Virus record (IMG/VR): IMGVR_UViG_3300036800_000175
Location: 1 to 64,000 of that record
Reading direction: 5' to 3' (one strand)
Origin: a virus
Length of the DNA: 64,000 bases
Positions 4,850 through 20,752 of this stretch are shown here, piece by piece. The position numbers and the translations under genes are program-made. Within the stretch, counting starts at the first letter, position 1. Every line of letters begins with the position of its first letter. The notes beneath the pieces were generated by a model, which saw only the letters and a program-made list of their open reading frames with translations, ran no database searches and had not been told where the DNA came from.

Positions 4850-5160
4850 TCGGCCGCCGCGTCCCCACCATCGGCGGGATCGAACAGCCAGGCGACTACT
4901 GCGGCCCCATCACCGGCTACACCGGCGACCTCGAGGCGTGTTTCTTCCTCAAACCCAACGCCCGCGACACCGACGCCACCGCCGGGGCGCGCAGCATCCA
5001 GCATGTCTGTTTCCCCCCGCACACCTACCGGGAATGCGCCGACGGGTCGCTTGAGATACGCCCGTCGATCAGCAACCTGACCGCCGGTGACATGGACGGA
5101 TCCAGCGACGACGGCTGGCACGGCTGGCTGGATGAGGGGCACATCTGGCGGCTCGCGTGA
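4846..5160 (+). CDS. DUF6527-like hypothetical protein
   Basis: DGSLEIRPSI ... WHGWLDEG.W; overlapping start/stop on both sides. Confidence 0.55.
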   Translation: MIGRRVPTIGGIEQPGDYCGPITGYTGDLEACFFLKPNARDTDATAGARSIQHVCFPPHTYRECADGSLEIRPSISNLTAGDMDGSSDDGWHGWLDEGHIWRLA

Positions 5161-7886
5161 GCGCAGTCGCGGGCTGGGAGCATGAGGCGCGCGGGCCGGG
5201 CGGCAAGTGGATAGAGCTGTACCACGGGACGACGTCAGCGAAGGCCGTCAGCATCAAGGCGAGCGGCATGACGGCCAGCAGGTACAGCCACTACAACAGC
5301 ACGCTCACGGTCAGGAAAGACGAAGCGGGCTACTTCGCCGGCGCTCACGGGGCGGTGGTCACCGTGCGGATTCCGGCGGATCAGATGGACGAGTACACCG
5401 AGGGCAACTCACAGGGCCTGGTGTCGCTGCGGAAACCGTTGCCGCCCAGCATGATCCACAAGGTGGACCACATGGATCCGCGCGATGCCAGACTGGCCCG
5501 GCCGGCCTCTCGCCGGATGATTGACCTGGTCGGCCCGCGCGGCTACGTGCATGGCTGGATCAAGGTCGGGGCCGGCGGCGAGCTCCCCCAAGGCCAGCCG
5601 GACGTCCGCGCCGCGAACGCCGCCCTCGCCAAAACCGGGGTACTCAAGAGGGCCACGCGGCAAAACATGAGCGTCGGCGGTGGCCTGGCCGTCGCGGGCG
5701 GCTCGAGCGACACGGAGCGGCCGGTCGCGGACGCCCTGACCGGCGCCACCCAGACCGGCAAGGACCACTACGTCATCCCGACCGCGATGGGCCTGGCCGC
5801 GACCCGGTCCAAGAGCGACACGACGTCAATGTCCGGGTACATCCAGGTCACCCCCGCCGGTGACGTGACGAAGATGGAACGCCCTAGCTTCGGCAAGCCT
5901 GCTGTGCCGGTCGCCCGCCTCTCAGACCACACCGTCGCCAGCGTCCTTGACCGGCAGCTGTCGAAGACGGTGAAAGCGCAGCCGCGCACCACCGCACCCA
6001 AGGCTGCGGTGAAGGATCCGGACGTGGTCCCGCGCAGCGCAGTCGCCCGCCTGGTCAAGGACATGAAGGCCAACCCGGCCCTGCTGACCCCGGAGTACAA
6101 GGCGCGGGCCAAGACGGTCGCGGGGAAGTCCGGCGCATCGGACCTGATTCCGTCGGACTGGGCCGGCGATCAGCCCGCGCTCGAGTTGTCCGCTCAGACC
6201 GCACGGCTGGCCAGCACCCCCGCGCCAGCAGGGAAACCCGGCGGGCCGGGCCTGTACCGCGTCAAAGGCATGGAACTCCCGCCGTACTTCCAGAACGTCC
6301 GGAACGCGCTGATCCGGTCCGGGCATCCGCCCGCGGAGGCGTACCAGATCACTTGGGGTGCGATCCGCCGCTGGGCACGCGGCGGCGGCAAGGCACACCC
6401 CGAAGTCGTCGCGGCCGCGAGGGCTGCGCTCGCCGCGCTGGCCGCTGATTCGGCTCGTGCCCACGCTCACTCCAACCCCGCGCGGGAGGCGATCACGTTG
6501 GCTAAAGTCGCCACCGGCGCGCAGGTGAACATTGCGACGGGCGCGACGGGGCCGCTGTCCCGCCCGCCCTCGAGCGGCGGCAAGGGCGCCGGTGGTGGCG
6601 GGTCGGGGTTCGATTCGCTGCATCCGCGGGTCGGCGCCGGGAACACGGGCGGTGGCCGGTTCGCCAAGAAAGGCTCCGGCACCACCGCAGCGTCCGGGTC
6701 GTCTGCGAAGACAGCCAAGGCCAAGACGGCTGCGAAGCCGAAGGCTGCCGGGAAGACGGCCGCCAAGACTGCGGCAGCACCGGCGGCGGGCAAGGCGACG
6801 ACGCCGAAGATGAACGCCACCCCGGCCAAACCGAAAACCCCGGCGAAGGCGAAGGCTGCACCGAAGCCAGCGCCGAAGCCGACGGGCCGCGCGGCGAAGC
6901 TACAGCAGAAAACCCAACTCCAAACCCAGGCCAGGAACGACCGGGCCAAAGCGAAAGCGATCAACGTCCAGATCGCGCAGCTGACCGCCGCGATCCACAC
7001 CGCCGTCAAAGCCGCCGCCGCATCCACAGCGTCCACCGCAGCCACGAAAACCGCTGCCACCGCCGCGAAAACAGCAGCCGCGACCACCACCGCGGCCGCT
7101 AAAACCGCTGCGACCGCGGCGACGACCACGGCGACGACGACCGCGTCCACGACCGCGAAGACAACATCGTCGGTGCCGGCGATGCGCGCCAAACGCGCCG
7201 GCCTGCGAGTCCAGGCACACACCCTGGTCGTCCGGGCGAACACGCTGGACAAGCAGGCCGCCGCGATCCACCTCACCGCCGCCGGGCCCGCCGCAGCGCT
7301 CGAGCTCGCGGGCGCGGCGCCGTTCCGTGAGGAACTCGCCCGCCGGGTGCCGGCCGGGAAACCGGGTGGTGGCCGGTTCGCTGAGCCGGCTGACCGGCTG
7401 ACCCGGCATGCGACCCCGGATCAGACCGCCGTGGCGGTCAACCGGCTCGCCCCGGATCAGCGTGCGGTGTGCCGGGCGACGGTACTGCCACCACCGGGTT
7501 ATGAGTGGGGCGGCACGGACCGGCTCATCCCCACGTCCGGCGCTGATCTGGCCGGCTCAGCGCGGGCGATCGAGCTGGTCGGCCCAAAAGGCTATATCCA
7601 CGGCTGGATCCGCCCCGGCGGGCCAGCACCGCCGACACCGGCGGCGAAGAAACCCGCGACGGTCGGGCATGTCGTCAAGGCGCACAGCCAGTCCACCGCG
7701 TACACCGACGCGAAGTTCGCTGAGCTGGAAACGCAGATCGGCGCCCTGCACAAGCAGATGGCGGACATGCAAGACAGCAAGGAAACCCACGACGCGAAAC
7801 TGAAAATCGCGTCGCACATCGGGGTGGCCGCTGCTGGCGGGATCCTGTCCTGTCCGTCGGGACTCAGGAAGCCATCGACTTCGTGA
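5157..7886 (+). CDS. 909-aa modular head-associated protein: N-terminal H-type ADP-ribosyltransferase-like domain, GPxGYxHGW motifs, Ala/Lys/Thr-rich linkers
   Basis: ELYHGT..SIKASGM; IDLVGPRGYVHGW and IELVGPKGYIHGW; HPR..GGRF motifs; C-terminus probably frameshifted near 7845. Confidence 0.7.
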   Translation: MSAVAGWEHEARGPGGKWIELYHGTTSAKAVSIKASGMTASRYSHYNSTLTVRKDEAGYFAGAHGAVVTVRIPADQMDEYTEGNSQGLVSLRKPLPPSMIHKVDHMDPRDARLARPASRRMIDLVGPRGYVHGWIKVGAGGELPQGQPDVRAANAALAKTGVLKRATRQNMSVGGGLAVAGGSSDTERPVADALTGATQTGKDHYVIPTAMGLAATRSKSDTTSMSGYIQVTPAGDVTKMERPSFGKPAVPVARLSDHTVASVLDRQLSKTVKAQPRTTAPKAAVKDPDVVPRSAVARLVKDMKANPALLTPEYKARAKTVAGKSGASDLIPSDWAGDQPALELSAQTARLASTPAPAGKPGGPGLYRVKGMELPPYFQNVRNALIRSGHPPAEAYQITWGAIRRWARGGGKAHPEVVAAARAALAALAADSARAHAHSNPAREAITLAKVATGAQVNIATGATGPLSRPPSSGGKGAGGGGSGFDSLHPRVGAGNTGGGRFAKKGSGTTAASGSSAKTAKAKTAAKPKAAGKTAAKTAAAPAAGKATTPKMNATPAKPKTPAKAKAAPKPAPKPTGRAAKLQQKTQLQTQARNDRAKAKAINVQIAQLTAAIHTAVKAAAASTASTAATKTAATAAKTAAATTTAAAKTAATAATTTATTTASTTAKTTSSVPAMRAKRAGLRVQAHTLVVRANTLDKQAAAIHLTAAGPAAALELAGAAPFREELARRVPAGKPGGGRFAEPADRLTRHATPDQTAVAVNRLAPDQRAVCRATVLPPPGYEWGGTDRLIPTSGADLAGSARAIELVGPKGYIHGWIRPGGPAPPTPAAKKPATVGHVVKAHSQSTAYTDAKFAELETQIGALHKQMADMQDSKETHDAKLKIASHIGVAAAGGILSCPSGLRKPSTS

Positions 7887-7896
7887 AGAGGCTGTG

Positions 7897-8094
7897 ATGC
7901 AACCATCTGAGCAGCCGTCTGAGATTTCACCGGACGTGATTAGTGCGGCGGTCGACGCGATGACGCAGGCGTTCATCCAGAACGGCGCTGACCCTGATGA
8001 CGCGAAGGTCGCCGCGGACTATTACGTCCGGGAAGCGATCCGGCAGAACAAGGTCCCCGGTTTCGAGACCGGCACCACCGGCCCGCCCAGCTAG
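7897..8094 (+). CDS. Small acidic protein (possible immunity/partner)
   Basis: TGATG coupling to the alternative C-terminal frame of the upstream gene. Confidence 0.55.
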   Translation: MQPSEQPSEISPDVISAAVDAMTQAFIQNGADPDDAKVAADYYVREAIRQNKVPGFETGTTGPPS

Positions 8095-8111
8095 GGAAGG
8101 CGGGTCGGCCG

Positions 8112-9353
8112 ATGATTGACCTGGTCGGCCCGAAAGGGTATGTCCACAATTGGGTGTTCGTAGGCGTTCCCGGCGCAAAGGCTGCCGCGCCCAAGGCGTC
8201 CGGCCCCGCTGCGGCGAAGGCGTCAGGGTCACTGCTGGACGCGTACAAGGGCTGGCGGGACAGCCTGACACCGGCTGAGTCCAAAGCCATGTCGTTCTAC
8301 CAGTCACCCGGGTTCGCCCTGATGAACGGCCAGTTGCGCGGCGTCGACGGTGGCCATTTGAAGGCCAGTGAGCATGCCACTGATGCGGACCTGGCCCGGG
8401 CGCGGCAGGCAAGCAAAGGCCTCGCCGGGGCCATAGCGAAAGCACCGCCGCTGCCCCGCGACACCACCGTGTACCGGGGGTTCGACGCCGGCCAGTTCGG
8501 TGACCTGACCCCCGGCAAAGTGATCACCGACAAGGGGTTCACGTCGGTGTCGGTGAACAACGACGCCGGCGCGGTCGGCCGCGCCACATCCAAGGCACAA
8601 GCGGTGATCACTCTCCCGGCGGGCACCAGGGCGGCCGCCGGATCGGTGCGTGAGCTCGTGCTGCCACCGGGATCCAGTTTCCGTGTCGTCTCCGCCCAGA
8701 AACGCGGAAAGGTGACGCATGTTCGGCTGGAACTAGTCCCGCGCGGCGGCAAGAAGCTGGCGAACCGCCGCGGCCGCGCGCTCGAGTTGACCGGCCCGAA
8801 AGGCTGGTCACACGGCTGGATCCGCGACGGCGACACGGTCACCTACACCGGCAACCTCGGCGTCGGCCGCGCCGACATGGCCCAACTGTCCGGCACCGTC
8901 GCCGGAAAGTACGTGCCGTCCGCAGCGATGATCCCGAAGTTCATCGCCCACCTGCGTGGCAAAGGCATCACGGTCACCTCGAGGCGCGCGCCGGCCGAGT
9001 CGCTGCGGGCGACGCAGACGACCGGGTCGATGCCGATGATCCGGGGCATCGCGGACGACCTGAAATCCGGCAGGCTGGCCGACACGAAACCGATCGTGAT
9101 CAGCTCTGACAACCGGGTGCTAGACGGGCATCACACCTGGGCTGGGCGGGTCCTGGCCGACTCCGAAGGCGGCCGTCCGGATCTGCCGCCGGGGATGCGG
9201 GTTGTGCAGGTCGGCATGCCGATGGCGGACCTGATCGGTGAGGCACGGCAGTTCGGCCGGGCCAGCGGTATCGCGCAACGCAAACCGGGTGAGATCGGCA
9301 ACCCGGCGTTCATGAAACCGAAGGTAGGACTAGCGGCGCGGGGGGTCGCGTGA
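8112..9353 (+). CDS. VIP2-like (R-S-E) ADP-ribosyltransferase domain fused to a ParB-like domain
   Basis: MNGQLRG, TVYRG, GFTSVS, RELVLPPG; second module PIVISSDNRVLDGHHTW; each module preceded by GPKGxxHxW. Confidence 0.8.
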   Translation: MIDLVGPKGYVHNWVFVGVPGAKAAAPKASGPAAAKASGSLLDAYKGWRDSLTPAESKAMSFYQSPGFALMNGQLRGVDGGHLKASEHATDADLARARQASKGLAGAIAKAPPLPRDTTVYRGFDAGQFGDLTPGKVITDKGFTSVSVNNDAGAVGRATSKAQAVITLPAGTRAAAGSVRELVLPPGSSFRVVSAQKRGKVTHVRLELVPRGGKKLANRRGRALELTGPKGWSHGWIRDGDTVTYTGNLGVGRADMAQLSGTVAGKYVPSAAMIPKFIAHLRGKGITVTSRRAPAESLRATQTTGSMPMIRGIADDLKSGRLADTKPIVISSDNRVLDGHHTWAGRVLADSEGGRPDLPPGMRVVQVGMPMADLIGEARQFGRASGIAQRKPGEIGNPAFMKPKVGLAARGVA

Positions 9354-10159
9354 AGACACCAGGACCGCAGCGTGCGGCCGGCCGCCGCCAACTCGCGGCC
9401 CGGAAGCAGGCCCTGCCGGGCGGGTCGTTCCCGATCCCGGACGTCGCCTATCTCAAGAAAGCGATCCGGTCGGTTGGCCGCGCACCGGCGTCGAAACGCC
9501 CGGCGTTGAAGGCGCTGATCCGCAAACGGGCCCGCGAACTCAAGGCCGCGAACACGCCTGGGGTCAAGGGGACGTGGCCGTTCCAGGCCGCCAACACGCA
9601 CGGGAAGGTGGTTGACCTCGCGATGGCGACGATGACCCGCAAGATGCCGGTGGTCCGCGGTGCCGCGGATGTGCAGCTGACCCGGAGTGGGCCGGGCAAG
9701 GTCACCGTGATGCACAAGTCCACCGGCTTCAAGGTCGGCACCCTCGGCCAGGCGGGGAAGGGCTGGCAGGGTGTCCACGCGTCGGGTGCGAAGACACCGC
9801 CGTCGGGGTCGATGGGCGGTGCGGTCGCCGGCCTGGTCGCGACGCACAACCAGCTCGCCCGGGGGAAGAAACTGCCACCCGCGCAGCAGGACGGTACCGC
9901 CACGTACGCGCATCCGGCGGGTGACGGGATCGACCTGGCTGGTGCGCTGCCCCATTCCACGCCGGCGAGCTCGGCGTCCGACGGGCCGCGCGTCACCACC
10001 GCCGGCGGCAGCGGGCCGGCTGGGCTGACCGGCGAAGCGGCCGCCGTCTACGCGAAGCTGATCAAGAAGGGGCTCAAGCCTGGCCAGGCGGCCGCGCTCG
10101 CCAGACGCGCGGCGGCGATGCACGCGAAGGCGGCAGACCCAAAAGCCTCAGCCGCGTAG
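9350..10159 (+). CDS. Head-associated protein with DUF6582-like N-terminus and a segment resembling the capsid N-terminus
   Basis: ALPGGSFPIPD..LKKAIRSVGRA..LIRKRAREL; TPASSASDGPRVT. Confidence 0.65.
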   Translation: MKTPGPQRAAGRRQLAARKQALPGGSFPIPDVAYLKKAIRSVGRAPASKRPALKALIRKRARELKAANTPGVKGTWPFQAANTHGKVVDLAMATMTRKMPVVRGAADVQLTRSGPGKVTVMHKSTGFKVGTLGQAGKGWQGVHASGAKTPPSGSMGGAVAGLVATHNQLARGKKLPPAQQDGTATYAHPAGDGIDLAGALPHSTPASSASDGPRVTTAGGSGPAGLTGEAAAVYAKLIKKGLKPGQAAALARRAAAMHAKAADPKASAA

Positions 10160-10164
10160 GCGGC
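10138..10164 (+). other. Candidate -1 ribosomal frameshift signal (C CCA AAA plus GCCGC-GTAG-GCGGC hairpin)
   Basis: X XXY YYZ heptamer in the correct phase; hairpin 6 nt downstream; -1 frame continues into the zeta domain with no start codon. Confidence 0.75.
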
Positions 10165-10959
10165 CGGACGGTAGACCTGGTCGGCCCGAAAGGGTATGAG
10201 CATGGCTGGCGGTTCGTCGGGATCCCCGCCGACTCGCTGACCGCGCACACCGACAAGTCCGGGAACCTGACCCCCGCCCGGGCGGCGCTGCATCAGAAAA
10301 TCGTGGCGCGGGCGCTCTCTGGCGCACCGAAGTCGGCTCATCCGGTCGCGACGTTCATGGGTGGCGGTCCCGCGTCCGGGAAATCCGCGATGCTCAAAGC
10401 CTCCGGCAGCCGCGGCCGGCCCGCGGGGGTCACGATCGACGCCGACGCGATCAAAGCGCAGCTACCCGAATACCAGGCGATGACCAGGGCGGGGAACGCC
10501 GGCGCGGCCGCCTATGCGCATGAAGAGTCGTCGGTGATCGCGAAGAAAATCCAGGCCGCCGCCATCAAGGGCGGCCACGACTTCACGTTGGACGGCACCG
10601 GGGATTCCAGCTACGCCAAACTGGCCAGCAAGGTCACCGCGGCGAAAGCGGCCGGGTACAAGGTCCACGGCCAGTACGTGACCGTCGACACCCCCGCCGC
10701 GGTCGAGCGGGCGACCGCCCGGGCGGCGAAAACAGGCCGCATGGTCCCCCCGTCGGTGATCAAGGAAATCCACGCTGGGGTGTCCGGCGCGTTCCGCCAG
10801 GCCGTCGCGAACAACCTGTTCGACACGTCCGAGCTGTGGGACAACAACGGGTCTAGCAGTAATGCGATTAAACTGATAGGGAGCCAGCGTGCAGGCGGCC
10901 AGTTCACGGTCGCTGACCAGGGCGCTTATGCGCGGTTCCTCGCGAAGGAAAACGAATGA
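10144..10959 (+). CDS. Zeta-toxin-like P-loop kinase, probably expressed as a -1 frameshift fusion
   Basis: GGGPASGKS, IDADAIKAQLPEY, HEESS, LDGTG, LWDNN; VDLVGPKGYEHGW lies upstream of the first GTG (10303). Confidence 0.85.
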   Translation, partial: SLSRVGGRTVDLVGPKGYEHGWRFVGIPADSLTAHTDKSGNLTPARAALHQKIVARALSGAPKSAHPVATFMGGGPASGKSAMLKASGSRGRPAGVTIDADAIKAQLPEYQAMTRAGNAGAAAYAHEESSVIAKKIQAAAIKGGHDFTLDGTGDSSYAKLASKVTAAKAAGYKVHGQYVTVDTPAAVERATARAAKTGRMVPPSVIKEIHAGVSGAFRQAVANNLFDTSELWDNNGSSSNAIKLIGSQRAGGQFTVADQGAYARFLAKENE

Positions 10960-11153
10960 TGGCAACGCAGGGCCGGGGTGAGGTCGCGGTCGCGATGGCC
11001 CAGGCCGCCGCGGCCGGTAAAGACTTCGCGGACGCCGGTGTCCCGGACACGGCCGCGAACCGGGCGCTGTACGCCAAGATCGTCTCTGAGGTGGATGCGA
11101 TCGACAAGGCCGGGCAGGTCGCGGAAGTGCCGTTCGACCACGCCCTCATGTGA
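10956..11153 (+). CDS. Small acidic protein, candidate antitoxin/immunity for the zeta-like kinase
   Basis: ATGA overlap with the kinase stop. Confidence 0.55.
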   Translation: MMATQGRGEVAVAMAQAAAAGKDFADAGVPDTAANRALYAKIVSEVDAIDKAGQVAEVPFDHALM

Positions 11154-11522: not shown

Positions 11523-12269
11523 TCAGGTGATCTTGCGGATCGGCACGACCATCGCACGGAACCGGCTGCCGATCTTCACCAGCACGGCCGCTCCGGGCAG
11601 GCCGGCACTGAACTCCACCGACACATGCCGGTCCGACTTCCTCTTCTTGCCGGAGAACACCTCATCGGATTCGACCTTCCCGAACAGGGTCAGCCACTTC
11701 TGGCCGAGGATGAACTCAGCAGGCGGCTCACCCGCCGGGATCTCCGCCATGCTGGGCTGCTTCGCACGCGGCTTGCGGTGGCCGCCGAACAGTGTCTCGC
11801 CCGCCCGCGGGAACTCCCCGGAGGTGAGGACCTCGGCGCGGAGCGTCTGGTCAGGCTCGCATGCCTGCCCGGTGAGGGTGAACGCGGCGTGCCCCTCACC
11901 TTCGACCCACTCGATCACGATCCGGGGCGGCCCGGCGAGCGGTGAGAACTCTTGCAGTGACGCCAGCATTTTCGTGATCTTCACCAGTCCCGTGACGACG
12001 ACCAGGATGTCCAGGTCGGTTTCGGGGACGGGCGGCGGATCGGCGGTGCCCGGCACGGCGATCTGGGCCGGGTCGATCAGGTCCAGGTCCTCGCGGCTGA
12101 TCACGTAACGGTTGGTCGCCTCAAGCAGCAGCCTGCCGGGCTCAGTGCTGGTGAAATGCACGGCGCACAGCGACGGCAGGGTGTCGTCGGTGCAGGCGAA
12201 CAGTGAGGCGTTGAGCACTGCGCGGTAGAACGCGGTGGCGTCCACTGTCGCGGTGTGAGTGTCACTCAT
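11523..12269 (-). CDS. DNA polymerase III beta-clamp-like protein
   Basis: FACTDDTLPSLCAVH, LEATNRY, GEFP, C-terminal FRAMVVPIR match clamp domains 2-3. Confidence 0.7.
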   Translation of the reverse strand: MSDTHTATVDATAFYRAVLNASLFACTDDTLPSLCAVHFTSTEPGRLLLEATNRYVISREDLDLIDPAQIAVPGTADPPPVPETDLDILVVVTGLVKITKMLASLQEFSPLAGPPRIVIEWVEGEGHAAFTLTGQACEPDQTLRAEVLTSGEFPRAGETLFGGHRKPRAKQPSMAEIPAGEPPAEFILGQKWLTLFGKVESDEVFSGKKRKSDRHVSVEFSAGLPGAAVLVKIGSRFRAMVVPIRKIT

Positions 12270-12287
12270 GATCTTCCTTCCTGTAGG

Positions 12288-12530
12288 TCAGGCGGCCAGC
12301 GCCAGCGCGGGCCGGGTCGTGGGGCGGATGACGGTCACTTCGCGCATTGGCACGCCGGCGGCGGCCAGAGCCTCAGGTGTCCGGGCGAACGCCATGACCT
12401 TGCCGTCCAGCCGGGCGCAGATCTGCGGGCCGTCTCCGACGGGATCCAGTGGCGTGCCGGCCGGGTTGAACCGGCGTGGCGGCCGGGTGAATTCCAGATC
12501 CATCACCTCAGCCGTCCACCCGGAAGTCAT
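12288..12530 (-). CDS. Hypothetical protein
   Basis: Coupled within leftward operon. Confidence 0.55.
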   Translation of the reverse strand: MTSGWTAEVMDLEFTRPPRRFNPAGTPLDPVGDGPQICARLDGKVMAFARTPEALAAAGVPMREVTVIRPTTRPALALAA

Positions 12531-12814
12531 GACTGCGCCTCAGCGGCCAGCCGGCCGTTCAGCAGCCCGGCGGGACGCGGGCCGGTCGCGACACGGCTCG
12601 TGCCGTACGCGTACCAGAACGCCCGGTCGTTCGCGGCCTTGGCCAGCCTGCGGCCATCCTCAACACGGGCCAGCGCCTCACCGTGGGAGTCGTAGGGGCC
12701 CAGCAGCCGGCCGGTCCGGCCGCCGTCCTTGACGGTGACGTAGAACCCGCCGGGGTCGCCGTTGTCATGCGAGCCGGCTGGGCAGCCGCACGGCTCAGCC
12801 GTGGTGGTGGTCAT
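12527..12814 (-). CDS. Hypothetical protein
   Basis: RBS GAAGGAG; FYVTVKDGGRTGRLLGPY. Confidence 0.65.
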   Translation of the reverse strand: MTTTTAEPCGCPAGSHDNGDPGGFYVTVKDGGRTGRLLGPYDSHGEALARVEDGRRLAKAANDRAFWYAYGTSRVATGPRPAGLLNGRLAAEAQS

Positions 12815-12834
12815 CGTTGCTCCTTCGGTGGCCA

Positions 12835-13203
12835 TCAGGCGGCCAGGCACATTGCGCGGCGGTTGGAAGCGATTTGCGTGGTGGCCGTGGCCATGCCCGA
12901 CGCGGCCGCCTCAGTCAGTGACCCGGCCTGGTCCTGCCACCGTGAACTGCCGTACACCTCGCCTTTTTCGGGGCTGCCGGTCTGCCAGTTCCGCCGCGAC
13001 GCGCGGCCCACGGCCAGGACCCCGCCGGCCAGGACCTCGCCGGGCTCCGGCTCATCGGGGTGCACCCACCATGCGTTGGACAGGCCGTTGCCGGTGGGGG
13101 CGCCGGACCAGACGGTGCCTATCCGGTCGTACGGCTCGCGATCGGCGCTGTAGTGGCGCCAGACCATCACGTCGCCGGCCTGGACAGGCTTGGCGGTCGT
13201 CAT
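12835..13203 (-). CDS. Hypothetical protein
   Basis: First gene after promoter 13247-13275; RBS GGAAGGA. Confidence 0.65.
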   Translation of the reverse strand: MTTAKPVQAGDVMVWRHYSADREPYDRIGTVWSGAPTGNGLSNAWWVHPDEPEPGEVLAGGVLAVGRASRRNWQTGSPEKGEVYGSSRWQDQAGSLTEAAASGMATATTQIASNRRAMCLAA

Positions 13204-13246
13204 CGGGGTTCCTTCCCGCGGGGGGATCCGTTCCCCTCACAACTAC

Positions 13247-13275
13247 ATTTTACCCGGTCAAGTAGACCACGTCAA
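13247..13275 (-). promoter_or_regulatory. Repeated promoter/operator copy 1 (TTGACG-17-TAAAAT)
   Basis: Sigma70-type boxes; spacer contains the GTCWA-N-TTGAC palindrome. Confidence 0.85.
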
Positions 13276-13306
13276 ATAAAACGAGCCGCCCCGGACGGGA
13301 CGGCTC
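13276..13306 (-). terminator. Intrinsic terminator
   Basis: GAGCCG..CGGCTC hairpin followed by a T-tract on the minus strand. Confidence 0.6.
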
Positions 13307-13443
13307 AGAGGTTTCCGCAGGTCAACGGCGGCGCCTCGCCCTGCTGCGGGCCGCCCGCCAGACCGCGACGACAGCCACCGGGCAGGTGACAGCAGCAGCC
13401 GCCTCGAGCGGGTGGGAGCCGGTCAGCCAGCCGGCGACGGCGG

Positions 13444-13704
13444 TCACGCCTGCACCTCCGCCTGCGGCTTCGGCGCCGGGTAGGTGCTGTGAGCCAGGAT
13501 GACGTGATCCCGGTACTCCGGACCCGGTCCCTGCTTGACCCACTCCTGCTCATAGGTGCGGCCGGCGTAGATGCTGCCGTCCTGCGGCCAGGTGGCTTGC
13601 TCATAGATGGTGACGCCGTAGTCGGTGCCAGCCGGGGTGGATCCGTTCGGTGCGGGCGGCCGCAGGGTTTCCCACTCCACTCGCCGCACTTCCTGCCAGT
13701 CCAC
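13444..13704 (-). CDS. Hypothetical protein
   Basis: Downstream of promoter copy 2; RBS GGAG. Confidence 0.6.
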   Translation of the reverse strand: MDWQEVRRVEWETLRPPAPNGSTPAGTDYGVTIYEQATWPQDGSIYAGRTYEQEWVKQGPGPEYRDHVILAHSTYPAPKPQAEVQA

Positions 13705-13748
13705 AGGGGTTCTCCGTCCCGTGAGGGGAACCTCCCCTCACACTCCCT

Positions 13749-13777
13749 ATTTTACCCGGTCAAGTAGACACGGTCAA
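13749..13777 (-). promoter_or_regulatory. Repeated promoter/operator copy 2 (TTGACC-17-TAAAAT)
   Basis: Same 29-bp architecture. Confidence 0.85.
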
Positions 13778-13821
13778 ATAGCAGAACGCCCCCGCGTACC
13801 CCCGCGCCACGAGCACGTCGG

Positions 13822-14037
13822 TCACAGCCGCACCTCACGCTTGAGGACCTCCCGGGCGTACTTGACCACCTCAGGCAGGAGCCACACCTGCATCCGGGCC
13901 AGCTTCTTAGACTTCGGCGCCTCCGGGTGGATGCGCCGGTCCATCAGCTGCCCGGCGCGCTGCTTGGACACGCCGAGCATCTGCCCGATCTCACCCACGC
14001 CCACCACGTCGTCAATGGTCACCTTGCGTGCTGTCAC
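13822..14037 (-). CDS. AlpA/excisionase-like HTH DNA-binding protein
   Basis: VVGVGEIGQMLGVSKQRAGQL..P.P...VW..EV. Confidence 0.8.
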   Translation of the reverse strand: MTARKVTIDDVVGVGEIGQMLGVSKQRAGQLMDRRIHPEAPKSKKLARMQVWLLPEVVKYAREVLKREVRL

Positions 14038-14113
14038 CGGCTCGCTCCAATTCGGCTCACGCCCCCGGCCGTTTGACCGGGGGCAGTTGACGGGGTCAGG
14101 TGGCCCCAGTAAA

Positions 14114-14509
14114 TCAGCCGGCCGCCGTGGCGTCCGTCTCGATGTCCACCTCAGCGGCGAACCGGCCTTCCCAGTAGTCCCGCTGGCCGTCGGAGTTGTC
14201 GTAGTTGTACGCCCACAGGATCGCCTTGAGCGTGTCCTCGATCAGCTGCGCACCCGGGGTGAGCACGGACCGGCCGTAGTCATCGGTGGTGAAATGCTCC
14301 GCGTCGGCCAGGCCGGTCACCGTCACGGTGACCGACTTGCCCCCCGAATACCGTGCGATCCGCACCCCGTAGCCCAGCCCAGGGGGCAGGCCGGGCAGGC
14401 CCAGGGCGGCGGCCAGCCGGGCGGCCTTGATGTCAGCCCGGACCAGCTTCGCCACCTCCGCGATATCCAGGGACTGTGTGTCGTGGTACTTGCTGCCGTA
14501 GGTGCTCAT
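14114..14509 (-). CDS. Large-polyvalent-protein-associated domain (LPD29/LPD25-like) protein
   Basis: AKLVRADIK..VRIARYSGGKSVTV..YNYDNSD..DYW..F. Confidence 0.55.
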   Translation of the reverse strand: MSTYGSKYHDTQSLDIAEVAKLVRADIKAARLAAALGLPGLPPGLGYGVRIARYSGGKSVTVTVTGLADAEHFTTDDYGRSVLTPGAQLIEDTLKAILWAYNYDNSDGQRDYWEGRFAAEVDIETDATAAG

Positions 14510-14859
14510 TCCTTCCTCTCTTCCGGGCCAAGACGGCGCGTTCCGGGCCGCGGGCCCCAGACGCGCTCGATCTCCCGGTTGCAGTCCCAGCGCGGGTTAC
14601 TCGGCGGGTCGCCCTCATGGCAGGGGCATTCGCAGTGGGTGACCTCACAGCCGGGGTTGACCCAGCCGTGGCAATCGGCGTGAGTGCCCGTCCCGGTGCC
14701 GAGGCAGTTGATCGTCGTCTTGCCCTTGCGCAGCCCACGCCGCGACGCGGGCGCGGGCTGCGGGTCGGGCTCGCACATCCGGCAGACGCCGGATGTGCTG
14801 TCGCAGCCGCTGGACCGGCACCAGGTGCCGGACGGCGTGTTGTGCTGGGGGATCTTCAC
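14506..14859 (-). CDS. Cys-rich metal-binding hypothetical protein
   Basis: Multiple Cys/His clusters including CECPCH. Confidence 0.55.
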   Translation of the reverse strand: MKIPQHNTPSGTWCRSSGCDSTSGVCRMCEPDPQPAPASRRGLRKGKTTINCLGTGTGTHADCHGWVNPGCEVTHCECPCHEGDPPSNPRWDCNREIERVWGPRPGTRRLGPEERKE

Positions 14860-16496
14860 GCGGTCTCCTCACCGGCCGCCGCCATGGCGGTCGTCTCATC
14901 GGTGCTGGCCGGGGCCGGGATCACGGCCAGCACCGTGCTGACACTGGTCCCCGACACGGCGAACGACTCATCCGGCAGCCGCTCAATCCACCCGCCGCAA
15001 TCCGCGACCAGCTTGCGGAACCCCTCCGCCGTCTTGTTCTCCCGGGACTGCGCCCCGGCGGACATGACCGCCACCAGCCGGCCACCCGGCTTGACGAACC
15101 CCAGCGCGTGGGTGACATGCGCGATGTCGGCCTGACCGGCGAACGGCGGGTTCATCAGGACCCGGTCGTAATACTCCGCGCCAGCCGGATTGTCCCGGGG
15201 ACCGTATTCCAGGAAATCGGTGCAGACGACCATCCGCGCGAACGGCTCGCCGCGCAGCCGGCCGGCCATCTGGCCGTTCAGCTCCACGCAGTCCACCACC
15301 GCGCCTGCCGCAGCGGCCACCGACGCGATCGCGCCCAGCCCGGCTGAGGGTTCCAGCACCGTCATCCCGGGAGTCAGACCCGCTTCGCTGATCATCTGGT
15401 CAACGACCGCGGCCGGGGTGGGGAAGTAGCCGGTACGGGCGTCCACCCGGATCGGCTCGGGCCGCTCGGCCTGGGCCAGTTCGGGCACGGCGGGTGCCTC
15501 GCGGCGGGTCACCGTCCGCTTGGCCCGCACCACGACCGTCTTATCCTCATGCGGGCAGGTCACCGACTGGATCTGCTCATACGGCAGGACCCGGGGCCAG
15601 GACCGGCGGTCCAGCGAAACACTCTTCGGGTTGACCCGGACCACCGTCGCATCGCTGCCCGGCCGCGTCGACCAGGCCACCGTGTCGCCCTTGTGGACGG
15701 TCTCACGGTTCAGCCGGACGTACCCATTGGCCTCATGTTCGGCCAGCGCGGCCCGGTCCGCGGCCAGGTTGTGTTCCAGCCACGTCCTGCGGGCTTCCAG
15801 GGATTCCCTGTACGTCCCGCCCGCTGGCTGCCGGTCGTACCCGTAGGCGCCGCGCCAGTCGTTCGCCGGCCGCGTCCCGTTCAGGTAGTGGCCGATCTGC
15901 CGCAGTTCCGCCTCCGTCTTGTCGATCCGGCGGATGATCACCGCCGGGCGGTCGCGGTACGCGTCGGCCAGGCCGACCACCGCCGCAGCGGCAGATGCCC
16001 GTTCGGCTTCCCGCTGCGCCTCGCCTGCGGCGCGGTCGTTCTGCTCCATGCGCTCATGATCGCGGCGTGCACGCCGTTCGGAGTGATGGCCGACCAGGAT
16101 CGGCTGACCGCCGGCGAACCGCTCACTGATCGCGTCCGCGGCGGCGTGGCGGGACTGGGCTTCGGCTCCGGCCCGCTGCGCCTTCGCGGTCAGCCGGTCG
16201 TAACGGTCGTCCAGCCGGCCGGCCCGGTCCGCCCTGACCTCGGTCACGGCGCGGGGGGCGTCGTCAATCTCAACCGTCACCTCGTGGCCGGCCGCGCGGA
16301 GCACCTGTTCGGCTGCCTGGATCTGGTGGCGCTTGGCTGGGCGGTCGCGGGACTGGGCGATGCCGATCATCTTGATCGACGGGAAGTACCGGAACCGGGG
16401 CCCGGTCCGGGGGCCGATCAGCTCATACACGCCGTCGCCTTTGCTGGTCCCGTAGACCAGGGTGCCGTCTTCGTGTGTGTGCCGGATGGTGATCAT
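14856..16496 (-). CDS. DUF3560 domain fused to an amino-(N6A/N4C) DNA methyltransferase
   Basis: GQPILVGHHSERRARRD; YFPTP, LEPSAGLG, MNPPF; start reassigned to MITIRH with RBS AAGGA. Confidence 0.85.
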   Translation of the reverse strand: MITIRHTHEDGTLVYGTSKGDGVYELIGPRTGPRFRYFPSIKMIGIAQSRDRPAKRHQIQAAEQVLRAAGHEVTVEIDDAPRAVTEVRADRAGRLDDRYDRLTAKAQRAGAEAQSRHAAADAISERFAGGQPILVGHHSERRARRDHERMEQNDRAAGEAQREAERASAAAAVVGLADAYRDRPAVIIRRIDKTEAELRQIGHYLNGTRPANDWRGAYGYDRQPAGGTYRESLEARRTWLEHNLAADRAALAEHEANGYVRLNRETVHKGDTVAWSTRPGSDATVVRVNPKSVSLDRRSWPRVLPYEQIQSVTCPHEDKTVVVRAKRTVTRREAPAVPELAQAERPEPIRVDARTGYFPTPAAVVDQMISEAGLTPGMTVLEPSAGLGAIASVAAAAGAVVDCVELNGQMAGRLRGEPFARMVVCTDFLEYGPRDNPAGAEYYDRVLMNPPFAGQADIAHVTHALGFVKPGGRLVAVMSAGAQSRENKTAEGFRKLVADCGGWIERLPDESFAVSGTSVSTVLAVIPAPASTDETTAMAAAGEETA

Positions 16497-16654
16497 CGGG
16501 TGTTCCTTACTGCGGGGCGGCCGCGCCGCACCTTGCGGCGGCGGGCTGGGATGACCTTGACGGCCGGCGGGGCCGGGCGCCTGCGCGCCATGATCACGGC
16601 GGCGGCTGCGGCTCCTGCCAGCATCGGTTCCTCCCTCTCTCACCCTGCAATACC

Positions 16655-16699
16655 ATTGTACCCGGTCAACTTGACTAGGTCAAATTGACCGGGTACGTT
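16655..16699. promoter_or_regulatory. Promoter/operator copy 3, bidirectional (minus TTGACC-17-TACAAT; plus TTGACT-17-TACGTT)
   Basis: Extended palindrome GTACCCGGTCAA...TTGACCGGGTAC. Confidence 0.8.
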
Positions 16700-16707
16700 C
16701 CCGCAGG

Positions 16708-16971
16708 TCAGGTAGCGAAACGCGCCGTGATCCTGTACCGGTGGGCCCGGGTGACATGCGGTGCCATCTCCTGCACGTCCACCACCTCGGGCGTCACGCC
16801 GGTCGCGGCACGCAGCAGCGAGGCAATCCACCGCCGGTCGCCGTAGTAGCAGGTCGTGCCGGGCATCGCGATCACCACCGCGCCACGGTGCGCGGGGGAC
16901 GCGGTGGTCGTGATGTTCACGCCCGGGTGCAGGCGGCGCAGTCCGCGGGTCACCTCAGCAGGGGTCAGCAT
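16708..16971 (-). CDS. Hypothetical protein
   Basis: Leftward operon member. Confidence 0.55.
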   Translation of the reverse strand: MLTPAEVTRGLRRLHPGVNITTTASPAHRGAVVIAMPGTTCYYGDRRWIASLLRAATGVTPEVVDVQEMAPHVTRAHRYRITARFAT

Positions 16972-17146
16972 TGGGGGGGCCTTTCTGGTCGTAGTTCACG
17001 GGCGCGTCGGTTTCGATCACGTATGACACGCCGTCGCCGTCGGTGGCGTTCGCCGCCTCTTCATCGGCCTGGTGCCGGTCGCCGTACACGAAACCGGGCA
17101 TATCCGCGAGTCTGTGACTCCCGTAGATGACCTGATAGTTGGGCAT
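16955..17146 (-). CDS. Small acidic hypothetical protein (MPNYQVIYG...)
   Basis: RBS GAAGGGGG; downstream of promoter copy 4. Confidence 0.6.
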   Translation of the reverse strand: MPNYQVIYGSHRLADMPGFVYGDRHQADEEAANATDGDGVSYVIETDAPVNYDQKGPPNADPC

Positions 17147-17188
17147 CGGATGTCCCCCTTCCGTAGGGCCTCGCGGGCTTACAACCTG

Positions 17189-17217
17189 ATTGTACGCGGT
17201 CAAGTTGACCCGGTCAA
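17189..17217 (-). promoter_or_regulatory. Promoter/operator copy 4 (TTGACC-17-TACAAT)
   Basis: Contains perfect GGTCAA-G-TTGACC palindrome. Confidence 0.85.
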
Positions 17218-17443
17218 ACCTCACGGAGCACGGCGAGGTAATCCTCACCGTCGACGGTGAGGCACAGGCAGTCGCTGTATTCCGGGTCGGTGGCCAGGTG
17301 GCCACGCCGCACGGCACGGCACGCTGCCGCGCGGGCCGCCCGGCCTGCTGGTCGATCCTGGTGGCCGTGCACGGGCGTACCTGCTCAGCCAGACTCAGCG
17401 CGACCCGGTCTCTCATCTCAGCCGCCGTCAGACTGCGGGCCAT
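17214..17443 (-). pseudogene. Apparently frameshifted small gene (MARSLTAAEM... / ...LCLTVDGEDYLAVLREV)
   Basis: N- and C-terminal protein-like halves are in different frames; RBS GGAGGT. Confidence 0.4.
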
Positions 17444-17484
17444 CGCTAGCGGTCACCTCCGCGATCTGCTCCACCCTGCACTTC

Positions 17485-17513
17485 ATTGTACCTGGTCAAC
17501 TTGACGCGGTCAA
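17485..17513 (-). promoter_or_regulatory. Promoter/operator copy 5 (TTGACC-17-TACAAT)
   Basis: Same architecture. Confidence 0.85.
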
Positions 17514-17533
17514 AGGTGCGGGGGTGTTACGCA

Positions 17534-18181
17534 GTGCCGGACGCGTGGCGCCACACCCTCGGCCTGGACACCGCCGGCCTCCGCGCCTACGGGCGGTTGC
17601 GCGCCCGTGGCGTCGGTCACGGCCACGCTGTAAAAACGGCCCGCCGCACCGTCACCCTCGGCCATACGTGGGCCGCCATTGAGCTGGTCGGCCCGCACGG
17701 CTATGAGCACAACTGGATCTTCGTCGGCGTCCCAGCGGACAAGGTCGGTCATGTCACAACCCTGAAAGGTGATCAGCAGTTCTACCATGTGACCAGGAGA
17801 GATCCTGAGCAGGCGATCAGGAACGGCCTGCCCCCATCGCAGGCTGGTGAGAGCGGCCCCGGCGTCTATCTAGCGGCTGACCGGCAGTACGCCTCAAGCA
17901 TGACGCGCTGGGACAACTCAATGAAGACGCTGGGCGTGACAGTTCACGCCGGCAACGGACTGCACCTACTCGACAGGACTAAGCCCGGCGGGGAAGCCGA
18001 ATACCGCCGCATCCAGATGTATGAGAACGGCAACAAAAACGTCGGCATGGACAAGGCGCTAGCCGCCAACGGCTACCACGGCGTGCGGTACCTCTCACCG
18101 GGCAACAAATACGCAGAGACGGTCATCCACGACCCGGGCAAGCTGACAGTGCATGGCGTTGTCAGTCCCGGGGCGGCGTAG
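17534..18181 (+). CDS. GPxGYxHxW-tagged H-Y-E type ADP-ribosyltransferase-fold protein
   Basis: IELVGPHGYEHNWIFVGVP, then FYHVT, GPGVYLA, GYHGVRY, ETVIHDP; visibly lower GC. Confidence 0.75.
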   Translation: MPDAWRHTLGLDTAGLRAYGRLRARGVGHGHAVKTARRTVTLGHTWAAIELVGPHGYEHNWIFVGVPADKVGHVTTLKGDQQFYHVTRRDPEQAIRNGLPPSQAGESGPGVYLAADRQYASSMTRWDNSMKTLGVTVHAGNGLHLLDRTKPGGEAEYRRIQMYENGNKNVGMDKALAANGYHGVRYLSPGNKYAETVIHDPGKLTVHGVVSPGAA

Positions 18182-18464
18182 CGGCCTCCGCCAAAGCGTC
18201 CCAGTGGTCAAGCTGATCGGCGGGGACATCAGGGTCATCCCAATGACACAGGATGAGTTTGCAAAGATCCCGCAACGGCTGCGGTAGGCGACCTTCGCTG
18301 ATCATCCCCGCATGGGATCGGGGAACCATTGAGGGGGCTTTGCGGCAACGGGCGCACTGATCCGGGTCAAGCTGATCGGGGTGTCCCCATGCTGCCGGCA
18401 GCGCGTGCAGCTCACTCGCGGGCGATCTCAGCGGCCAGATCGTGACCATCGCCGGCTCAGCCAT
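18162..18464 (-). CDS. Hypothetical protein
   Basis: Last gene of leftward operon, convergent on the ART gene. Confidence 0.4.
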   Translation of the reverse strand: MAEPAMVTIWPLRSPASELHALPAAWGHPDQLDPDQCARCRKAPSMVPRSHAGMISEGRLPQPLRDLCKLILCHWDDPDVPADQLDHWDALAEAATPPRD

Positions 18465-18678
18465 CGCGCAGCACCTCCGCGATCTGCTTATCGGTGGCAC
18501 CAGTGGCCTTCGCCAGCCGGATGGCCAGCGGTCGCGGCAGATCATCACGCCAGACCGCGACGTCGGGTTGCGGGTACGTGCCCGCTTCCAGCTCCGCGAT
18601 GACGCTGAGCAGCTGCGGGCACTTATCGAGGATGAGCACCGGGTGCGGTAGGGAACGGGCCCAAGGCTGCGGTTTCAT
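18457..18678 (-). CDS. Hypothetical protein
   Basis: ATGA coupling; RBS GGAAGGA. Confidence 0.55.
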   Translation of the reverse strand: MKPQPWARSLPHPVLILDKCPQLLSVIAELEAGTYPQPDVAVWRDDLPRPLAIRLAKATGATDKQIAEVLRDG

Positions 18679-18929
18679 GCGGATCGTCCTTCCGGGTTGA
18701 GGTGGGTGCGGCCAGCGAGCATGTCGCGGACGGCCTCGGCCCGGCTGGGCCGGAACTCGGTCCACGCGTTCGCACCGTCGCCCAGGGCGGCCCAGCCGCC
18801 GGGGCCCGGCCCGAACCCTGAGACCCAGCCGGCGACCTTCCAGCGGCCGCGTGGCTTGGCTTGGGTCAGGACCGTGTAGTCCCGGGGCGTCATGTGCTCG
18901 CCCTTGCGCTTCCGGAAACGGGTGCGCAT
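18675..18929 (-). CDS. Hypothetical protein
   Basis: Coupled in operon. Confidence 0.5.
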   Translation of the reverse strand: MRTRFRKRKGEHMTPRDYTVLTQAKPRGRWKVAGWVSGFGPGPGGWAALGDGANAWTEFRPSRAEAVRDMLAGRTHLNPEGRSA

Positions 18930-19144
18930 CACTTGCCCCCTCCCGCCCATTGGGCGACTTGCAGCCGGAACCCTTCCGGCGCCGAGCCGGCCGGGTAGAC
19001 CGCGCATTTGAAGCCCTCGGCTTCGTATGCGCGGTGCCGGGCGTTGCAGTGGCCGCGCCGGCCGCCGCTCAGCTTGATGGGCAGGCCCAGCGGGCAGTAC
19101 GACGGCTTCCAGCCCCACAGCACGAACTCAGTGGCGGCCATCAC
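18929..19144 (-). CDS. Hypothetical protein
   Basis: Coupled in operon. Confidence 0.55.
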   Translation of the reverse strand: MMAATEFVLWGWKPSYCPLGLPIKLSGGRRGHCNARHRAYEAEGFKCAVYPAGSAPEGFRLQVAQWAGGGK

Positions 19145-19449
19145 GCACCTTCCAATGCGGCGTCCATCGCGGCGTACCAGTCCTCATCGGACTCGAACAC
19201 GCGGTCGCAGCCGCCGGTGCCTTCGGTACACCGGGACTGGCCCGGCTTCAAGCCAGCCTGTTCCGGGTAGCAGGCCGGCACCCGGTAGCCCACCACGGAT
19301 CCGTGCGTGCAGATCCCGCGCTTCTGCGCGCGGTGCATCGCGTTGCCCACGCGGGCCAGTTCGGCCATCTGTATGTCGGCGTCGAAACGCTCGGCTTCCA
19401 GGGCTTCCACGTCGGCCCAGGGGTCCTCATCGAACGCGGCGTAGCTCAT
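19141..19449 (-). CDS. Hypothetical protein
   Basis: Coupled in operon; CTH..C..C. Confidence 0.65.
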   Translation of the reverse strand: MSYAAFDEDPWADVEALEAERFDADIQMAELARVGNAMHRAQKRGICTHGSVVGYRVPACYPEQAGLKPGQSRCTEGTGGCDRVFESDEDWYAAMDAALEGA

Positions 19450-19772
19450 CGGGTGCCTGCTCTCTCATAGTTGATGGGGACGTGGACGCCGGTGAACCGG
19501 GAGGCCAGGGTGCGGCGGGCGCATTCCTGGGGGGTCAGCCGGCCGTCGCGGGCGGTGATCCGCTCGGAGACGGGGTCGGCGGCTGAGATCCAGCCGCCGC
19601 CGGCGGCGCGGATGCCGGGGGTGACGGTGACGTGCAGCCGCCATCCGGTTCCGGTGGTCTCGCACAGGACCAGGATCATCGCCTCACCGGCGTCGATCTC
19701 GGCGCCGGCTTCGGGGTAGGCCCGGTTGTACTCGCGGGCCGCTTCCCTGATCCCTGCCTCTGTCATCTCCAC
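19446..19772 (-). CDS. Hypothetical protein, possibly leaderless
   Basis: Start lies ~7 nt from the -10 box of promoter copy 6. Confidence 0.6.
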   Translation of the reverse strand: MEMTEAGIREAAREYNRAYPEAGAEIDAGEAMILVLCETTGTGWRLHVTVTPGIRAAGGGWISAADPVSERITARDGRLTPQECARRTLASRFTGVHVPINYERAGTR

Positions 19773-19778
19773 AACTAC

Positions 19779-19807
19779 AGTTTACCCGGTCAACTAGACA
19801 GGGTCAA
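19779..19807 (-). promoter_or_regulatory. Promoter/operator copy 6 (TTGACC-17-TAAACT)
   Basis: Same architecture. Confidence 0.85.
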
Positions 19808-20661: not shown

Positions 20662-20703
20662 GCCGTGAATCCTTCCCGCGGGGGCACTTCCCCCTACAAC
20701 CCC

Positions 20704-20732
20704 ACTATACGCGGTCAACTTGACCGGGTCAA
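20704..20732 (-). promoter_or_regulatory. Promoter/operator copy 7 (TTGACC-17-TATAGT)
   Basis: Perfect GGTCAA-C-TTGACC palindrome. Confidence 0.85.
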
Positions 20733-20752
20733 AACGAAGCGGAGGGGAGGGC

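Follow-up and report, generated by a model that had tools for sequence, protein, structure and literature searches.

The first 64,000 bp of IMG/VR record IMGVR_UViG_3300036800_000175 (hereafter, the window; G+C content of about 69%), which comes from an uncultured soil phage with a record length of 109,876 bp, complete by the CheckV estimate, contain on the plus strand two overlapping reading frames: a gene for a 269 amino acid (aa) protein that we denote the carrier (9350 to 10159) and, in the -1 frame relative to it, a frame encoding a zeta-toxin-like kinase (10144 to 10959). The features of the junction between these frames, together with those of related junctions, make it likely that a programmed -1 ribosomal frameshift at the heptamer C CCA AAA fuses the kinase to the carrier, so that the two frames would constitute a single recoded gene. 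From the sequence, the frameshift is very probably the only route to the kinase, which would then be produced solely as a tail on the carrier. A preliminary description of the window had proposed the same fusion of the kinase to the upstream protein, and the proposal is now supported by the conservation of the heptamer, the variety of the payloads encoded behind it, the existence of payloads that lack start codons, and a switch of frame in the third-position G+C content (GC3).

The heptamer occupies positions 10138 to 10144 on the plus strand and reads C (10138), CCA (10139 to 10141), AAA (10142 to 10144), in phase with the carrier close to the end of that gene, in agreement with the X XXY YYZ type of slippery sequence. 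It is followed by a 6-nt spacer, GCCUCA (10145 to 10150), and then by the hairpin GCCGC-GUAG-GCGGC (10151 to 10164), a candidate frameshift stimulator with arms at 10151 to 10155 and 10160 to 10164 and outer pairs that reach 10145 to 10172; the zero-frame stop codon TAG (10157 to 10159) is located within the hairpin loop, four codons past the heptamer. The carrier frame ends ...A-D-P-K-A-S-A-A-TAG, giving the C-terminus ...AMHAKAADPKASAA. The -1 frame is uninterrupted between 9925 and 10959, and its first part, up to 10302, contains no ATG, GTG or TTG, which leaves 53 codons past the heptamer free of canonical start codons. Its translation from 10144 starts with SLSRVGGRTVDLVGPKGYEHGW..., continues as SLSRVGGRTVDLVGPKGYEHGWRFVGIPADSLTAHT.. 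and then enters the Zeta_toxin domain, so that the extension of 271 aa consists of the linker SLSRVGGRT, a tag (VDLVGPKGYEHGWRFVG, 10171 to 10221) and the kinase; added to 265 residues of the carrier, it gives a predicted fusion of 536 aa. The in-phase heptamer, the lack of canonical start codons up to 10303, the hairpin with the enclosed stop 6 nt downstream and the approximate size of the fusion had all been read correctly in the preliminary description.

This arrangement exceeds what is expected by chance: in-phase heptamers of the form XXXAAAZ occur twice in the 5410 codons of the large genes of the window, and the CCA and GGA codons that form the two versions of the heptamer are rare (4.9% of the proline codons and 2.4% of the glycine codons, respectively), yet are kept at the site. 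The frameshift site of Lactobacillus phage A2 is reportedly also C CCA AAA, with a stem-loop. Another in-phase C CCA AAA in the window (7583 to 7589, plus strand) falls within the GPK codons of a tag in a 909-aa open reading frame (ORF); there, the -1 frame is open for just 46 codons that encode arginine-rich junk, and the site is probably incidental.

The kinase domain (10324 to 10851, residues 61 to 236 of the 271-aa extension) matches PF06414 with an E value of 1e-28 and a score of 100.6 bits, compared to the curated cut-off of 22.3, and contains a GGGPASGKS P-loop along with the IDAD and DGTGD motifs. In the alignment with the zeta toxin 1GVN, GGGPASGKS corresponds to GGQPGSGKT, and TIDADAIK to VIDNDTFK; both the P-loop (Walker A) and the I-D-x-D segment, which includes the catalytic Asp, are invariant in the alignment of the kinase family. 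The kinase also matches phrog_16619, annotated as 'minor head protein'. Elsewhere, this domain is fused to a prohead-protease-like domain (P0018) or to MuF (P0067, PF04233), and it is present in the 'minor head protein' of cyanophage PSS2, all contexts that fit with a packaged cargo.

Judging by three sequence features, the stretch between the heptamer and the earliest canonical start codon of the kinase frame, GTG at 10303 to 10305, is translated. First, GC3 peaks at 0.83 to 0.93 in the carrier frame up to about 10140 and, at the same level, in the kinase frame from about 10150; the switch thus occurs 150 nt ahead of the GTG, and the GC3 of the carrier frame drops at this point. Second, in P0004 (66% identity), the linker and the tag, SLSR...VDLVGPKGYEHGWRFVGIPADSLTAHT, are located in frame behind a ParB-like domain, with the reading ASLSRSGRATIDLVGPKGF / ..ASLSRSGRATIDLVGPKGFEHGWRFVGLPADSLTAHT.. 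Third, the segment DSL..HT..G.L.P.R..LH..I, which lies upstream of and across 10303, belongs to the consensus of the kinase family, and the GTG is positioned inside it, 19 codons before the P-loop. In a survey of 80 kinase loci from IMG/VR, those with a resolvable start have at least 89, and usually 130 to 900, residues of the same ORF ahead of the P-loop, against 19 from position 10303. The window and locus L246 are the only two of the 80 without a start upstream of the DSL..HT segment. In L246 (2068 to 2308), the sequence of a MuF-like carrier (..LRCRGTVIAVW..) precedes a kinase module (..FNPDQPRDDHGRW..) that is in the +1 frame and has neither a start codon nor a slippery heptamer; an indel introduced during assembly, a +1 shift or decay could account for this configuration.

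These features bear directly on the possibility that the kinase is made alone, starting at GTG 10303 or at one of the near-cognate codons ACG 10168 and CTG 10177, perhaps via re-initiation after the stop at 10157, with the heptamer being incidental. The GTG does exist, and the product delineated by the gene caller, P0001, is a truncated protein of 189 aa that starts even further downstream. Moreover, a paralogous module at 8112 has ATG in place of the ACG, followed by 24 identical nucleotides (GACCTGGTCGGCCCGAAAGGGTAT, at 8118 and 10174), and in two of the related junctions (L002 and L004), GTG is found at the ACG position. However, a start at 10303 would remove the tag and the conserved DSL..HT..LH..I segment, leaving a protein shorter than any kinase homolog with a resolvable start; there is no Shine-Dalgarno-like GGAGG ahead of 10303, 10168 or 10177; and starts at ACG and CTG are very rare in bacteria. 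An independent start also leaves unexplained the presence of rare-codon heptamers, in two versions, in phase at nine junctions. We consider independent production of the kinase improbable. The preliminary description had named translation that starts only at 10303 as one outcome that would overturn the frameshift, and it is the loss of a conserved segment of the kinase family that speaks against such an outcome.

Comparison with related sequences strongly supports the frameshift. In the contigs of related soil phages, nine distinct junctions contain an in-phase X XXA AAA heptamer, CCCAAAA in seven cases and GGGAAAA in two. At all these junctions, the shift is -1, the zero-frame stop is found 1 to 5 codons past the heptamer, and the -1 frame is open, and the payloads differ, including a zeta kinase, a ParB-like domain combined with a kinase, an ADP-ribosyltransferase and unassigned proteins. 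Among about 30 distinct carrier C-termini for which DNA was obtained, exactly four, those of the window and of three related loci (L002, L139 and L155), end with ..PKASAA(A) before the stop, are encoded by an in-phase C CCA AAA GCC UCA GCS GCG.., and overlap a long -1 frame that reads PK-SLSR/G..[IV][DE]L[VA]GPKG[YF].HGW. The other 25 carrier homologs, with ..AKAA and similar ends, lack both the heptamer and a tagged -1 frame, and the control frame relation (+1) yielded no in-phase heptamers. The remaining junctions are organized in the same way. In L004, only the N-terminal domain of the carrier family is present, the zero frame ends ..GPKA, and the -1 frame encodes PKSLSRAGGGSVIELVGPKGY.. 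followed by an ADP-ribosyltransferase (PF03496). L145 and L173 encode a variant carrier with the heptamer G GGA AAA, where the -1 frame reads GKSMSR.. in L145 and GKSLSRVNRGAIDLVGPKGY... in L173; in L145, the sequence that follows GGGAAAA is different as well. L070 combines a 366-aa carrier with a 1367-aa payload, and in L242, a Portal_Mu/MuF-like carrier ending ..SRPKAGAS overlaps a -1 frame that encodes a ParB-like domain and a zeta kinase. In P0252, the two parts are naturally joined in frame at this junction (..RRADPKALSGQPRHVIELVGPKGF..).

In four cases, namely the window, L139, L155 and L173, the stretch from the heptamer to the tag is devoid of start codons. A scan of IMG/VR for the tag showed that all 15 tagged modules that open their own genes in the absence of a heptamer have a start codon at a distance of no more than 12 codons; its usual position is one residue ahead of I-D/E-L, as seen at 8112 and 5517 in the window; in four further loci, the nearest start is 16 to 75 codons upstream. 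Conservation of the heptamer in front of differing payloads had been proposed as a check on the frameshift, and the nine junctions, with two versions of the heptamer and four payloads devoid of starts, bear it out. A scan for the DNA pattern of a 15-mer (CCCAAAAGCCTGAGC) recovered mostly chance matches and an unrelated phage group with a G+C content of about 52%, in which the 15-mer is present in L006, L009, L010, L012 and approximately 25 other IMG/VR loci. In this group, the zero frame ends ..EPIDPKA and the -1 frame reads PKSLSAELRKDNWLMLQFG.., an arrangement that resembles frameshifts of the tail-assembly-chaperone type.

If the A run had been misassembled or misread, with four A recorded in place of five, the junction would in reality be one continuous ORF. 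Indeed, a single added A gives exactly the predicted fusion, and homopolymers are error-prone on some platforms. Nevertheless, a 12.9-kb Logan contig from the probable source run is identical to the window over 9800 to 10500, with 0 differences and 0 gaps, such that an independent assembly of the source sample is free of the indel that the preliminary description had envisaged as a refutation of the frameshift. Furthermore, relatives from three other soil studies and at least eight other contigs retain the -1 arrangement, and the zero-frame stop persists, either as TAG or as TGA; in a relative from run X7, TGA replaces the TAG of position 10157 at the same place. The probability of such an error appears negligible. 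Transcriptional slippage was considered separately and rejected because the A run consists of four nucleotides, which is too short for this process.

The junction could also be a recombination seam for cargo swapping, in which case the frame offset would play no translational role, and the kinase module, having lost its start through an ATG to ACG change, would be silent or decaying. Payloads and carriers clearly have been shuffled among the relatives, and loci with carriers that share only about 55% identity have nearly identical junction DNA. A seam of this kind does not account for the offset that is always -1 or for the heptamer that is always in phase and that stays slippery as GGGAAAA when the sequence behind it is new, as in L145. 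Decay is at odds with the intact kinase ORF of 271 codons with all motifs present, with the retention of a conserved partner gene, and with the three other payloads that likewise lack starts. We regard this scenario as highly unlikely.

The hairpin in the window starts 6 nt past the heptamer and is part of the minimum-energy fold (-14.9 kcal/mol); compared with shuffled sequences, its z value is -1.85 over 31 nt and -0.5 over 56 nt, which is not significant on its own. Across the junctions, 31-nt windows contain a local GC-rich hairpin 4 to 6 nt past the heptamer at six of the eight junctions analyzed (z from -0.8 to -2.9). The 5' arm, GCCGC(G), is constrained by double coding, and its GCGGC partner is located at a varying distance within the variable linker. 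This GCCGC/GCGGC pairing, of 5 to 6 bp, is present at five of the eight (the window, L004, L139, L155 and L173), whereas the background rate in these genomes, measured as the fraction of GCCGC sequences followed by GCGGC with a loop length of 3 to 9, is 4.1%; the probability of at least five cases among eight is about 6e-6, with the relatedness of the junctions ignored. L145 has a separate 9-bp hairpin (z of -2.9). The GC-rich hairpin is a likely candidate for the stimulator of the frameshift. An Rfam search of the junction gave no match.

Several observations weigh against the frameshift as the explanation of the junction. Folds of 56 to 116 nt downstream of the heptamer are no better than shuffles (z from -0.5 to -0.8), L002 and L070 show no hairpin, and the RNAalifold consensus of the junctions contains no compensatory changes of pairs. 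At four of the junctions, the payload might have a start of its own, GTG before IDL/IEL in L002 and L004 and ATG in L145 and L242, so that frameshifting is not strictly required there. The nine junctions are related by descent and accordingly are not independent, and the conservation of 15 to 20 nt could in part reflect double coding or cassette exchange. Finally, in P0122, the homolog most similar to the carrier (88% identity), the C-terminus is ..GGSTASAA and the heptamer seems to be missing. In P0122 and at the loose end of a contig from run X3 at 10134, this C-terminus is encoded by GGCGGTTCTACAGCCTCGGCCGCGTAG, and the -1 frame there still reads ..SLGRVG..

In the frameshift scenario that we favor, most ribosomes would terminate at the TAG at 10157 and release the 269-aa carrier, and some would slip by -1 on C CCA AAA, with tRNA-Pro re-pairing from CCA to CCC and tRNA-Lys from AAA to AAA. 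The GC-rich hairpin 6 nt downstream probably would assist the slip, and the slipped ribosomes would produce the 536-aa fusion of the carrier, linker, tag and kinase. Because the carrier gene is located in a Mu-like head-morphogenesis region, the fusion would be expected to bring the kinase into the head: it would enter the prohead along with the carrier, so that the zeta-toxin-like kinase would be present in the assembling head in sub-stoichiometric amounts and would be delivered to the next host together with the DNA. The rate of slippage would, under this scheme, set the low copy number of a presumably toxic cargo, as had been suggested in the preliminary description, and the tag might serve to target the fusion to the head, as a site of cleavage, or both.

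The assignment of the carrier itself is suggested by its genomic context. The protein has more than 120 homologs, mostly of 260 to 290 aa, with a typical end ..AMHAKAAAKAA or similar; it has no Pfam or PHROG match, and a Foldseek search against BFVD retrieved nothing at E <= 0.001. In the ESM Atlas, there are weak leads only, such as DUF6582 at 0.78. The AlphaFold model consists of three small domains (ordered regions 9 to 63, 108 to 170 and 228 to 262) and disordered linkers with pLDDT below 50. Neither the INPHARED collection of cultured phages nor the GTDB genomes yielded relatives of the carrier. In related phages, the carrier gene directly precedes a protease-like gene (M..LLTPYDKG..WRKQLLPVGTIDYKGRKI), and because of this adjacency, gene order indicates that the carrier is a putative head protein. 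The 'head protein' label used in the preliminary description is thus compatible with the location of the gene in a head-morphogenesis region and does not correspond to any family match. In five homologs of the carrier (P0127, P0144, P0190, P0248 and P0249), additional tagged modules are inserted into the two disordered linkers, with [IV][DE]L[AV]G-like repeats at either end of each module (e.g., ..ESVELAG...QSVDLAG..), as if these repeats were a unit of cassette insertion or a cleavage site.

The tag, [IV][DE]LVGPKG[YF].HGW, heads or joins six modules in the window (at 5520, 7569, 8115, 8781, 10171 and 17678, all on the plus strand). All variants in the window fit the broader pattern [IV][DE]LVGP[KRH]G[YW].H[GN]W; the tag opens the gene, as M-I-D-L.., at 5517 and 8112, and is located between domains in the other cases. 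In GTDB, it was detected in only two contigs of metagenome-assembled genomes of Streptosporangiaceae, the probable host group of the phage, and neither contig has a frameshift junction, and the INPHARED phages contain no relative of the tag. An alternative junction motif, W/F-N/D-x-x-L/Q-H/P-P-R-x-x-x-G-x-W/F..GGG, stands in for the GPKGY tag ahead of the same payloads in P0007, P0017, P0024, P0246 and L242 (1727 to 1830); the two appear to be interchangeable.

A 65-aa ORF (10956 to 11153, plus strand; GC3 of 0.88) overlaps the kinase stop codon in an ATGA arrangement and encodes a candidate immunity protein or inhibitor. Proteins with 60 to 65% identity are encoded directly after the kinase in three relatives (L235, L236 and L237). 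The predicted complex of the 65-aa protein with the kinase has an ipSAE of 0.77, compared to 0.00 for the best control (58 of 80 solved complexes attained the ipSAE mark, as did 2 of 110 mismatched pairs), with the interface positioned over the P-loop and the catalytic motifs. Three runs agree in at least 95% of the contacts, and the pLDDT of the partner is at least 84. A zeta-epsilon complex has already been solved, and because of this, part of the 0.77 score may reflect likeness to that complex; at the sequence level, the 65-aa protein is unlike epsilon. Binding of this protein over the active site of the kinase is supported by the model, and the predicted inhibitor gene lends some indirect backing to the toxicity of the kinase. 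The 65-aa protein would then neutralize the kinase in the producing cell.

Phage capsid and tail proteins with frameshift extensions are well documented (Atkins et al. 2016, PMC5009743), with examples including the major head and tail proteins of Lactobacillus phage A2, gene 10A/10B of T3 and T7, and the addition of Ig-like domains (PMC5009743). The junction described here shares with these cases the -1 slip near the 3' end of a virion-module gene, a C-terminal extension, and, as predicted, two products in a fixed ratio. The difference is that, in the known cases, a major capsid or tail protein is extended with a structural or Ig-like sequence, whereas here the carrier is an uncharacterized accessory protein, and the extension is an enzyme with a tag and a candidate immunity gene. 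Enzyme cargo would join the roles already described for frameshifting in the structural genes of phages, and we found no account in the literature of a conserved frameshift that attaches enzyme cargo. A related idea was formulated in the context of PRFect, namely that carrier and toxin genes are fused in some phages and perhaps are joined by frameshifting where the frames differ. In that work, predicted frameshifts between pairs of MuF-like and VIP2 ADP-ribosyltransferase genes in SEA-PHAGES genomes were reported (McNair et al. 2024, PMC10885494), and the idea takes the form of a one-sentence conjecture on calls that were counted as false positives, with no site, conservation analysis or kinase (PMC10885494).

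Among the systems that couple effectors to phage heads, the MuF polymorphic toxins of temperate phages are in-frame fusions to MuF for which packaging and injection have been proposed (Jamet et al. 2017, PMC5576092). The similarity to the junction in the window includes a head-associated carrier with a variable C-terminal toxin domain, a downstream immunity gene and swapping of payloads; both a variable C-terminal payload and a conserved small ORF after the kinase are found here, and the N-terminal MuF domain is absent from the carrier according to Pfam and PHROG. Unlike in MuF toxins, the link here would be made by recoding. The carrier of the relative L242 is portal/MuF-like. Neither zeta kinases nor frameshifting are mentioned by Jamet et al. 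(2017, PMC5576092). Phage-type polyvalent proteins are single long polypeptides that often are cut by their own peptidase domain; the analysis in which they were described does not mention frameshifting (Iyer, Burroughs, Anand, de Souza, Aravind 2017, PMC5512222). They share with the window the same set of effectors (ADP-ribosyltransferase, DdrB-like ParB, kinases and MuF), the late or head gene neighborhood, and predicted packaging with delivery upon infection. The head context is evident here from the portal (1 to 834) and the head protein (23534 to 24445), and the fusion would carry one enzyme domain in addition to the carrier; in contrast to polyvalent proteins, the window distributes the domains among several ORFs, connected by a tag that they have in common and, in the case of this junction, apparently by a frameshift. 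The kinase resembles zeta and PezT in its fold and motifs (PF06414, 1GVN) and in having a small partner that is predicted to lie over the nucleotide-binding site. It differs from zeta/PezT with epsilon/PezA in that the partner gene is downstream rather than upstream and bears no likeness to epsilon, and in that the kinase would be a C-terminal module of a virion-module protein rather than a plasmid addiction toxin.

A more general possibility, to which we assign a somewhat less than even chance, is that the junction is a portable recoding cassette, composed of X XXA AAA, a short double-coding stretch, a stop and a GC-rich hairpin, that moves with cargo modules and plugs any effector onto any head-module carrier at a fixed low ratio in soil actinophages. 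The effectors would include the kinase, the ADP-ribosyltransferase, the ParB-like nuclease and large uncharacterized proteins, and the carriers would be portal/MuF proteins or members of the 269-aa family. Such a system would be akin to polymorphic toxins, with the coupling achieved by frameshifting instead of gene fusion, and analogous to Gag/Gag-Pol.

If the frameshift operates as proposed, the role of frameshifting in phages would extend beyond structural variants, such as capsid extensions and tail chaperones, to the dosing of enzymes or toxins into the virion, and the late, head-tied production of a harmful kinase in small amounts would be explained. The junctions would also represent a new, widely conserved class of recoding sites in high-GC genomes, and cargo genes seemingly without a start codon would be easily mis-annotated, as illustrated by the truncated 189-aa kinase. 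Protein delivery by actinophages would also become directly accessible to experiments through the tag common to the modules and the candidate immunity gene.

The junction is located in a Mu-like head region. The left end of the window encodes a Mu-type portal (1 to 834, PF06074 match), which is followed by a weak MuF-like gene that forms a separate ORF (1246 to 1911) and by a run of cargo-like genes on the plus strand (5157 to 11153). The upstream neighbor of the carrier (8112 to 9353) is an ORF with an ADP-ribosyltransferase and a ParB-like domain. A second frameshift between this ORF and the carrier was considered and rejected, given that there is no in-phase heptamer and that the carrier has its own GTG within a GTGA overlap. 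No promoter-like or terminator-like sites were found on the plus strand between the carrier and kinase frames, and a megablast search with the junction region returned no matches. Downstream, a minus-strand insert of about 9 kb (11523 to 20865) encodes a RusA-like protein and a 595-aa protein with DUF3560 and a DNA methyltransferase; this block divides the head region, separating the cargo genes from the protease and capsid genes, among which the major head protein (23534 to 24445) matches phrog_1650 with an E value of 5e-72. Within the minus-strand block, a single tagged ORF is found on the plus strand (17486 to 18181).

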